The position numbers were made by a program, and so were the translations under genes. A stretch of DNA of 64,000 nt from Arcanobacterium sp. (GTDB taxonomy: Bacteria; Actinomycetota; Actinomycetes; Actinomycetales; Actinomycetaceae), in assembly GCA_022768785.1 (NCBI GenBank), contig JALELI010000125.1, positions 1,865-65,864 on the forward strand, given 5' to 3'. The notes below the pieces were generated by a model. That model searched no databases, was not told where the DNA came from, and saw only the letters and a list, made by a program, of their open reading frames with translations. Shown here piece after piece: positions 60,741 through 64,000 of this stretch. How positions within the stretch are numbered: position 1 is the stretch's first letter; the number at the start of each line of letters is the position of its first letter.

Positions 60741-60995
60741 CAGTTTCACCTCAGCGGGCCAATTTTTCCCACCCTGTAAATCGTAAATCCCCACCCTTCA
60801 AGCGGTAGCGTGCGCCAAACAGCTGCAGAGCCGCCCCTCTGTAGGAGGCCTCTCTGGTAGGAGATCTTCTGCAAAGGGCGTAGAAAAGGCCACTGTAGCT
60901 GGCATGGGATAGCGGCTGGGCGGCAAGCACAGCAGCTACAGCTAGGCGAAAACCGCAGTCTATGAGGCTCCTCTATGGGAGGCGCTACTCAAAAA

Positions 60996-62882
60996 TCAGT
61001 TAGTTTTGTTGGTTCCAGTGGAGCCCCCTGTGCCGCCAGAACCGTTGCCGGATCCCGAGCCGTTCTGCCCACCTGTAGATTCACCTGGTTGAGCTGGCTG
61101 ATCTGGCGTTGGCGCCGGTGGCGGAGTGGGAGTAGGCACTGGCCCCAACGAAACAGTGAGTTTCACACGGGTATTGTATGGTTGTTTGCCAGCTCCAGGG
61201 CTCTGATCAATCACGGTGCCCTCGGGCTCTTTAGAATTCACACGGTCCGTGTCGAACTGCAGCTTCAGCGTGGTGAGTGCTTTCTGTGCGTCGTCAAGCG
61301 ACATTCCTACAAGCGATGTGAGAGTTACTTCGCCCGAAGCAACTGAAAGCTGGATCGGAGTATCTTTTGTTACTGTTGTGCCTTTAGCTGGATCAGTTTG
61401 CACCACAGTGTCTTTAGCCATACCAGGTTCATCAACGGTGTTGGTGTTCCCCGCTGTGAGCCCAGCTTTCTGTAAAACGTCTCGCGCCTCCTGCTGGGTG
61501 AGGCCAGCGACGTCGGGCACGGCGACCTTCCCTTTGCCCGCAGAGAAATGCACGGTAACGGTGGATCCTGGCTTCACGAGTGCTCCGATAATCGGATCCG
61601 AGGAAACGTAGAGCCCCTCTGCAATTTTGTCGTCTTCCACGGCACTGCCCACGGCGATCTTGAGGCCGGCATCTTGCAGTGCGGAGGTGGCAGCGGTTTG
61701 ATCTTTTCCTTCGAGATTGGGCACTTTCACCATTGTGACGGCGGGTTGGTGAGTTCCTAAAATACCGGAGCTCACAATTGCGAACCCGAGCCCCCCAATT
61801 GCGGCGAGTACCACCAGCACGATAAGCGTCACCCACAAGCCTTTGTGAGAGCGGCGCTCCTCTTCCACAGCGGGAGTGATATCAGTGGTGGTGGTGATAA
61901 AAGAATCGTGAACGGGGTTTGCAGTTGGAATCACCGGATTGACGGCAGTGCTGGCGCCACTTGCCACCAGCGTAGGGGCACTAATGCGGGTTTCCCAAGT
62001 GCCAATAGCAGGAGCTTCCACCGGTTCCCCGCGCACGGCTGCCAGGAGATCGCCGCGCATCTCGGCCGCCGTCTGATAGCGCTCGTCACGTTTCTTTGCC
62101 AGTGATTTCATCACCACGCGATCAATTGCCTCGGGGATATCCGGAGCCACAGATGAAGGAGCTTTGGGCTGTTCTGAAACGTGCTGATAAGCCACTGCCA
62201 CTGCAGAATCCCCTTGGAACGGTGGCTTCCCCGTGAGTAATTCATAGAGTAAACACCCTGTGGAATACAGATCGGAGCGGGCATCTACCACTTCTCCGCG
62301 CGCCTGCTCGGGAGAGAGATATTGAGCTGTGCCCACCACGGAGTTTGTGGAGGTCATGGTGGCAGAAGAATCGGCCACCGCGCGAGCGATACCGAAATCC
62401 ATCACTTTCACTTTGCCATCTTGCGTGATCATGATATTGCCGGGCTTGATGTCGCGGTGAATGATGCCTTCGTAGTGGGAATACTCCAATGCGGAGAGCA
62501 CTCCCACTGTAATCTGCACAGCTTCGTTGATCGGAAGTGCCTGGCCATTGCCGAGCAGCTTAGAAACGGTGCGGCCTTTCACATACTACATCACGATATA
62601 GGGGAGGGCTACAGTACGGCCGTTCTCGCTGAGTACTTTTTCTTCGCCGGTATCATAAATAGCTACGATTGCCGGGTGGTTAAGGGCAGCAGCTGACTGT
62701 GCTTCGCGCCGAAAACGCGCTAAAAAAGTGGGGTCGGAAGCTAGATCTGAGCGCAGCACTTTAATCGCCACTGTGCGCGAAAGGCGGGTGTCGTATCCGA
62801 TATGCACTTGTGCCATACCGCCACGCCCAATGAGGTCGCCCACCTCATATCGTCCGCCAAGAATGTGTGGGATATCCGTCAT
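60996..62882 (-). pseudogene. pknB: PASTA Ser/Thr kinase PknB interrupted by an in-frame TAG at codon 99 (62586-62588)
   Basis: GRGGMA, VAIKVL, then YIVM-TAG-YVKG, then HRDIKPGN, DFGIAR, GTAQYLSPEQ, TM and 3 PASTA repeats, all in one frame. Confidence 0.9.
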
Positions 62883-63064
62883 ACGAGAGCACTCCTTATA
62901 CGGCGCCGAGCTACACGTGCGCCATCTTCGTTAATACTGCACCATCTGTGTTGTGGATTGCATCTGTGGAATGTTGCGATTGCATTACAAAGGTCTGTGA
63001 GGCATGGGCCTACAAACCGAGAGTGATGATTCTTTCTGCGTAAAAAGTTCGTGCGATACATCAT
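62879..63064 (-). CDS. Putative 61-aa ORF in the pknA position
   Basis: ATGA overlap with the pbpA stop and ATGA overlap with the pknB start; no recognisable homology. Confidence 0.4.
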   Translation of the reverse strand: MMYRTNFLRRKNHHSRFVGPCLTDLCNAIATFHRCNPQHRWCSINEDGARVARRRIRSALV

Positions 63065-64000
63065 GAGGTGGCCGCCTGAATCACTTGTGCAGCAATCGGT
63101 GCTGCCGTCACCCCGCCAGTGCCGCCATGCTCTACAAACACGGCCACCGCCACTCGCGATTTCTCGGCAGCTTCAAAGCCGATATACCACGCGTGGTTAT
63201 CTCCAGAGTTTTCGGCTGTGCCGGTCTTCCCAGCAGTGTTCACTCCGGCCACCGCTGCGCTGGGATTATGGCTCACCACATCTTTCATCATTGATGTGAG
63301 TTGATCAGCTGTGGTGCGAGAAATCGGCTCGGAAAAAACAGTGGGGGTGGTTTGAGCCACTACCGCTAAATCTGCTGTGAGAGTTTGATCCACCAAATAA
63401 GGTTTCATCAAAGTGCCGTGATTCGCCACGGCCGCAGCCACCATTGCCATCTGCAGAGGGCTCGCCTGGATATCCTTTTGCCCGAAAGAATCCAGGGCTA
63501 GTGCAGCTTGATCAGCAGGCTGCGGGAATCGAGATGCGCGAGTGGGCATACCGATATCGAGATCCTGGCCGAAACCGTATAGCTTCGCTTTGTCGAGCAG
63601 CTTCTGTGCGCCCACTTTTACACCTCCGGCAGCGAAAGTGGTGTTGCAGGAGAGCACGAGAGCAGTGCGCAGAGTAGCTTTGCCGGAGCCATCTCCGCAC
63701 ACTCCCACAGCGTTGCGCACTTGGGTGTTGGTGCCAGGCAAAGTGTATGCCGTGGGAGCATCTACCAATGAATCTGGAGTGAGGCCAGATTCCAGCATGG
63801 CACTGGCAGTGATGATCTTAAATGTGGAGCCTGGCGGGTAGAGATCTCCGCCAATGGCGCGATTCAGCAGGGGGTTGTTCTTATCAGCTTGATAGGAATC
63901 CCAAGCCTTTTCTGCAGTGGCATACGTGTGGCTTGCGAGCTGATTGGGATCGAAACTTGGGGAAGACACCAATGCCAAGATCTTTCCGGTGGTGGGCTCA
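63061..64000 (-). CDS. pbpA: Class B penicillin-binding protein PbpA (3' part; start outside window)
   Basis: PGSTFK (SxxK), LSCN (SxN), GKTGTA (KTG) all intact. Confidence 0.92.
   Translation of the reverse strand, partial: EPTTGKILALVSSPSFDPNQLASHTYATAEKAWDSYQADKNNPLLNRAIGGDLYPPGSTFKIITASAMLESGLTPDSLVDAPTAYTLPGTNTQVRNAVGVCGDGSGKATLRTALVLSCNTTFAAGGVKVGAQKLLDKAKLYGFGQDLDIGMPTRASRFPQPADQAALALDSFGQKDIQASPLQMAMVAAAVANHGTLMKPYLVDQTLTADLAVVAQTTPTVFSEPISRTTADQLTSMMKDVVSHNPSAAVAGVNTAGKTGTAENSGDNHAWYIGFEAAEKSRVAVAVFVEHGGTGGVTAAPIAAQVIQAATS

Follow-up and report, generated by a model that had tools for sequence, protein, structure and literature searches.

PASTA kinases of the Stk1 (PknB), StkP, IreK and PrkC family, to which PknB of Mycobacterium tuberculosis belongs, share a kinase domain, a single transmembrane (TM) helix and extracellular PASTA repeats, and the M. 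tuberculosis gene is part of the locus fhaA-fhaB-pstP-rodA-pbpA-pknB. A different kind of precedent is provided by the strain-private nonsense alleles, or young pseudogenes, and the internal-stop artefacts known from bacterial genomes and metagenome-assembled genomes (MAGs), in which a single-base stop, absent from conspecifics, interrupts an otherwise perfect gene that has no secondary lesions, under an unchanged genetic code. Finally, kinases have been divided into two chains by design: according to PMC6168510, the engineered ligand-gated split kinases (SPELL; Camacho-Soto et al., 2014) are cut in surface loops and carry the fused inducible dimerisers FKBP and FRB. The pknB gene described here has the domain composition and the locus of the first group, and its lesion belongs to the known class of strain-private nonsense alleles and internal-stop artefacts, being nothing new in kind. 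Compared with the usual private nonsense alleles, it strikes a signalling kinase that is well conserved as a rule, and does so at a hinge residue that does not vary, and a paralogous PASTA kinase may buffer its effect.

The gene, which encodes a kinase that senses the cell wall, lies in a window of 64,000 nucleotides, by which we mean the whole stretch of DNA that was analysed, on a 71-kb contig of an uncultured Arcanobacterium. The source genome is MAG-like, with 1.93 Mb in 129 contigs and 54.9% G+C, and is rated 96.5% complete. Its nearest named relatives are Arcanobacterium MAGs (86–89% protein identity), and the cultured Arcanobacterium and Trueperella species show about 60% protein identity. 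The features of the pknB region are as follows.

60996..62882, minus strand: pknB frame (Stk1-type PASTA Ser/Thr kinase), 628 codons plus a TGA stop, with one interruption.
62586..62588, minus strand: in-frame TAG at codon 99 (GAG in all conspecifics), from the strand reading and the conspecific alignment.
62586..62882, minus strand: upstream piece, 98 codons plus the TAG, with an ATG start at 62882, from the list of open reading frames (ORFs).
60996..62582, minus strand: downstream piece, 528 codons with a GTG start, in the same frame, from the ORF list.
62580..62582, minus strand: GTG 3 nt past the TAG, the ancestral Val101 codon of YIVMEYV and a possible restart codon.
62892..62897, minus strand: AAGGAG Shine-Dalgarno site of the true pknB start (ATG 62882), with an anti-Shine-Dalgarno duplex of -9.6 kcal/mol.
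63061..64000, minus strand: 3' part of pbpA (class B transpeptidase), which precedes pknB in the operon, from the ORF list and the conspecific gene table.

Across the stop, the minus strand reads ...CTC CCC TAT ATC GTG ATG TAG TAT GTG AAA GGC..., with the TAG at 62588–62586. The altered base is 62588, where the plus strand has A in this assembly and C elsewhere, i.e., a G-to-T change on the coding strand. An earlier note on this DNA had described a single GAG>TAG change inside pknB that leaves both halves in frame, a 98-residue N-lobe being followed by a GTG-initiated frame 3 nt after the stop; the strand reading and the conspecific GAG bear out this description, and both ORFs are indeed present in the same frame.

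According to the conspecific gene table, which is collinear with the contig analysed here, the gene order is fhaA-fhaB-pstP-rodA-pbpA-pknB, the first four genes lying past the end of the window on the same contig and pknB being the last gene; beyond it lie a 52-codon ORF and a sortase gene, both convergent. No pknA is present at the fhaA-pknB locus, where the 180-bp spacer between pbpA and pknB holds just a non-conserved 61-codon ORF.

Translated through the TAG, the pknB frame yields 628 residues with a Pfam Pkinase match at residues 12–270 (E 2e-51), a hydrophobic segment at residues 349–370 that corresponds to a single TM helix, and, beyond it, three stretches of PASTA (Pfam E 1.6e-35). All the Hanks-type motifs, namely the Gly loop, the VAIK Lys, HRD and DFG, were located in this read-through protein, and the TAG distributes them over the two pieces along with the Pkinase match itself (profile positions 1–70 on the first piece and 81–253 on the second). 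The upstream piece comprises the N-lobe with the Gly loop (residues 19–26), the VAIK Lys (38–41), the alpha-C Glu region and the gatekeeper Met98. The downstream piece contains the C-lobe, with HRD (142–149), DFG (162–164) and the activation loop (172–192), as well as the TM helix, the three PASTA repeats (about residues 382–580) and a Pro/Gly-rich tail. The kinase domain aligns end to end with that of M. tuberculosis PknB (1MRU; E 5.6e-101), with LPYIVMEYV opposite LPYIVMEYV, and residue 99 falls on what we take to be the hinge Glu of that structure, Glu93 in native numbering. In an alignment of the best 119 homologues, this position is Glu in 119 of 119. The earlier identification of the interrupted codon as that of the hinge Glu is supported by both alignments. 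Thus, pknB is a regular member of the Stk1/PknB family of PASTA kinases in each tested respect except for the uninterrupted frame, which the TAG at codon 99 breaks in this assembly. It differs from M. tuberculosis PknB in the number of PASTA repeats (three instead of four), in the lack of a pknA at its locus, and in a frame that is broken in a single assembly.

The species has an intact version of the gene. The read-through protein with Glu99 has an exact match over all 628 residues in the protein database and is encoded by four independent conspecific assemblies, the NCBI MAG GCA_034173935.1 and three Logan run assemblies (SRR21357633, SRR21357693 and SRR31546696). The four contigs are 99.6–99.9% identical to the window at the DNA level, and all of them read GAG at codon 99. 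Their alignments are collinear over the TAG site for 2.7–12.9 kb, so that no contig-end or junction effect is involved. Among the congeners searched, codon 99 is GAG or GAA in 15 of 15, and a frame for an intact single polypeptide is found in these as well as in all four conspecifics. An apparent internal TAA in one congener (G006) is the natural stop of the gene, reached by an alignment that extends into the tail, and does not represent a second broken allele. Exact look-ups of the 98-residue and the 528-residue pieces retrieved no other assembly with either product, and a scan of JGI metagenome contigs for either allele found nothing. On these comparisons, the TAG appears to be a young change, private to a single assembly of a species whose normal allele is intact. 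The earlier note had held that GAG in sister strains would remove the finding as an assembly artefact; the sister strains do carry GAG at the species level, which goes largely, albeit not wholly, in that direction.

A comparison with conspecific DNA (loci L016–L019 and L100–L102) spans 34 kb of the contig that carries the window. The 101 SNP sites in this region consist of 90 transitions and 11 transversions (about 11%); by effect, 69 are synonymous, 25 nonsynonymous, 6 intergenic and a single one, the pknB TAG, nonsense. The indels are intergenic or multiples of three bases, and there are no frameshifts. Where at least two other strains cover the contig, over 16.5 kb, the window strain has 18 private differences, about one per kb; it is a distinct lineage in which private SNPs are common. 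Seventeen of the 18 are transitions and 15 are synonymous, the pknB TAG being the sole transversion and the sole nonsense change. Within pknB, the other differences in the species are nine in number, none of them private to the window; because all nine are synonymous, the gene is under strong purifying selection within the species. Contrary to the expectation for a decaying pseudogene, the 628 codons contain no further private lesion, so that the TAG is either very young or not real.

A genome-wide scan for stops flanked by coding signal on either side places the pknB TAG second among 3837. The other top candidates that were examined are ordinary gene junctions, where a GGAGG-like site is present and a start codon follows the stop directly, and the scan found no other nonsense-split gene in the 1.93-Mb genome. 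The statement that no other gene of the window has an internal TAG therefore holds, and extends to the whole genome.

From 60934 to 63229, which covers pknB together with the 3' end of pbpA, the window has a mosaic haplotype made up of two strain types. It agrees with the SRR31546696/SRR21357693 type at the 8 variable sites between 60934 and 62142 and with the GCA_034173935.1/SRR21357633 type at the 9 between 62385 and 63229; the switch thus falls between 62142 and 62385, 200–450 bases from the TAG. This pattern could stem from recombination within the species or, alternatively, from co-occurring strains merged into a chimeric MAG consensus.

Two readings would preserve a functional kinase despite the TAG, and both appear to be at odds with the data. 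The less credible of the two, to which we assign almost no weight, is that UAG is decoded, by a suppressor tRNA, as pyrrolysine or by programmed read-through, such that full-length PknB is what the cell normally makes. In its favor, the frame continues unbroken on either side of the TAG, and low basal near-cognate read-through happens at any stop; nevertheless, TAG terminates 297 of the 1149 open frames of at least 250 codons (26%), and prfA (RF1) is intact and scores 450.7 bits, above the curated cut-off. A tRNA-CUA is absent among the 31 tRNAs that ARAGORN found in the whole genome, an incomplete set; given that the list is without tRNA-Ala, Cys, Ile and Val, among others, and the MAG is accordingly short of some tRNA loci, this absence is not absolute. 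Furthermore, the genome-wide scan found no other conserved gene with an in-frame TAG, the conspecifics encode Glu99 as GAG, and an Rfam scan around pknB gave one chance match (E 0.91) and no element near the TAG. UAG is a normal stop in this organism, and recoding is excluded, in line with the earlier note, which had argued against a genome-wide form of it; of the two simpler explanations that it offered, amber read-through is largely refuted by the TAG usage, RF1 and the lack of a tRNA-CUA among those found, whereas error stays a rival. The other reading, also very unlikely in our judgement, is the cleanly split kinase of the earlier note, in which translation stops at UAG99 and restarts at GTG101, and the soluble N-lobe reassembles with the membrane-anchored C-lobe-TM-PASTA chain into an active enzyme. 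Both halves are otherwise intact and the GTG lies just 3 nt after the TAG, and such stop-start proximity can support termination-reinitiation in bacteria. However, a split pknB is seen in none of the four conspecifics and none of the 15 congeners. Codon 101 is GTG in the intact conspecific alleles as well, and GTG, GTC or GTT in the congeners; being the ancestral Val101 codon, it is unlikely to have evolved as a start. Pairing of the 20 bases upstream of GTG101 with the anti-Shine-Dalgarno tail is unexceptional at -5.5 kcal/mol, compared with -9.6 for the true pknB start: it is equalled or exceeded by 38% of random internal GTGs and is weaker than that of 61% of putative starts, whereas real tight gene junctions in this genome bear clear GGAGG-like sites. 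There are no added dimerising segments, and, since pknB has no other private change, there would have been no time for adaptation to a split state. Some termination-reinitiation may occur at GTG101, and its product would be devoid of the whole ATP-binding lobe. The engineered split kinases, which resemble the pknB pieces in presenting a kinase domain as two chains, do show that a kinase domain can be divided and put back together (PMC6168510, citing Camacho-Soto et al., 2014); in that source, however, this is achieved with surface-loop cuts and inducible dimerisers and not at the hinge, which forms the pocket for ATP, whereas pknB is cut there, has no dimeriser and gives no sign that the second chain is made. 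Were the gene a functional split kinase all the same, it would be a natural one that has only just arisen, and would mean that cutting at the hinge can be tolerated by a Hanks kinase. As it stands, the proposal finds no support.

The choice is thus between a real allele and a consensus artefact, and here we lean, with modest confidence, to a real null or hypomorphic pknB allele that arose by G-to-T mutation. In all four conspecifics the codon is GAG and the encoded protein equals the read-through product, and private SNPs are common in the window strain, as the 18 in 16.5 kb indicate. The assembly otherwise looks clean, this being the sole nonsense change among the 101 SNPs of the 34 kb, the genome-wide scan found no other nonsense-split gene, and the alignments run collinearly over the site. 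Short-read graph assemblers at usable coverage rarely fix a random error, and a 71-kb contig in a 96.5%-complete genome points to usable coverage. The alternative, that the DNA of the organism reads GAG and pknB is intact, appears somewhat doubtful to us but is a serious rival. The false base would come from template damage (e.g., 8-oxoG), from PCR duplicates at low local coverage, or from the choice of the assembler in a mixed-strain sample. In its favor, and against a real allele, the change is a one-off that affects a residue shared by 119 of 119 homologues, in a gene with zero nonsynonymous variation within the species; TAG is absent from the four conspecific assemblies and the 15 congeners, and neither the 98-residue nor the 528-residue product is on record from a second assembly. 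The genome is a 129-contig MAG, and the mosaic haplotype, with its switch close to the TAG, hints at a mixed-strain sample, but a base absent from both strains cannot arise when strain bubbles are merged, and an artefact has to be reconciled with the lack of frameshifts and of other nonsense changes in the 34 kb compared and in the genome-wide scan. With no other transversion among the 18 private differences, and with a change of the G-to-T type that is a classic artefact of oxidative template damage, the TAG would seem to point to an error as well. We nevertheless rejected the type of mutation as a discriminator between error and mutation: any change from Glu to a stop must be G-to-T, so the type tells us little, and transversions make up about 11% of the natural differences in the species.

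For the real allele, we infer that the TAG is truly in the DNA, as a very recent G-to-T mutation in the sampled strain or in the dominant subpopulation of the community of this uncultured Arcanobacterium species. RF1 would end translation after Met98, leaving a 98-residue N-lobe fragment without the catalytic lobe, and a chain restarted at GTG101 would be without the ATP-binding lobe. Because both products would be inactive for these reasons, the allele is predicted to be null or, at best, a strong hypomorph that leaks trace full-length kinase via near-cognate read-through. The loss could be tolerable given that pknB is last in its operon, so that no polarity would be expected, and given that a second, intact PASTA kinase would presumably compensate for it; PknB-type kinases are also dispensable in some actinobacteria.

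The second PASTA kinase is encoded on another contig of the genome (C35:2418-4202, locus L014) and is an intact protein of 728 aa, 36% identical to PknB, with the hinge YIVMELVEG. A third Hanks kinase (C117:998-3000, locus L015) has 673 aa and a multi-TM C-terminal region. Congeners have counterparts of both. The presence of the intact second PASTA kinase and of the third kinase counts in favor of a real allele, and the former might buffer the loss of pknB. In Corynebacterium glutamicum, PknA, PknB, PknL and PknG are each individually dispensable, according to PMC2784874, which likewise speaks for a real allele. Given this dispensability and the second PASTA kinase, the argument from the essentiality of PknB in several actinobacteria, raised in the earlier note, is weaker than was implied.

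As it stands, the observation matters little, being a single private nonsense change in a MAG of a species whose normal allele is intact, and annotators would do best to mark pknB as a pseudogene with an internal stop, in this assembly alone, rather than as two genes. A real allele would amount to a naturally occurring knock-out of the PASTA kinase of this operon, in a species of Actinomycetaceae that keeps a second one, and would point, if modestly, to redundancy of the two kinases in this lineage.

In the spacer between pbpA and pknB (62879–63064), the 61-codon ORF is ATGA-coupled to both neighbours. It is not kept open in congeners, with stops in L002, L004, L005, L007 and L011, and a Pfam search of the ORF returned no match, nor did the spacer match Rfam. 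Two short nucleotide motifs in this spacer, about TGTAATGCAATCGCAAC and TGGTGCAGTATTAAC, recur genus-wide, which points to conservation of a regulatory or promoter element and not of a peptide. Another spacer lies past the window on the same contig (C93, about 70717–70945), upstream of the fhaA operon. This 230-bp intergenic stretch shows about 20 differences and 3 indels relative to the conspecific MAG, far denser than elsewhere, and is a hypervariable spacer at the end of the contig.
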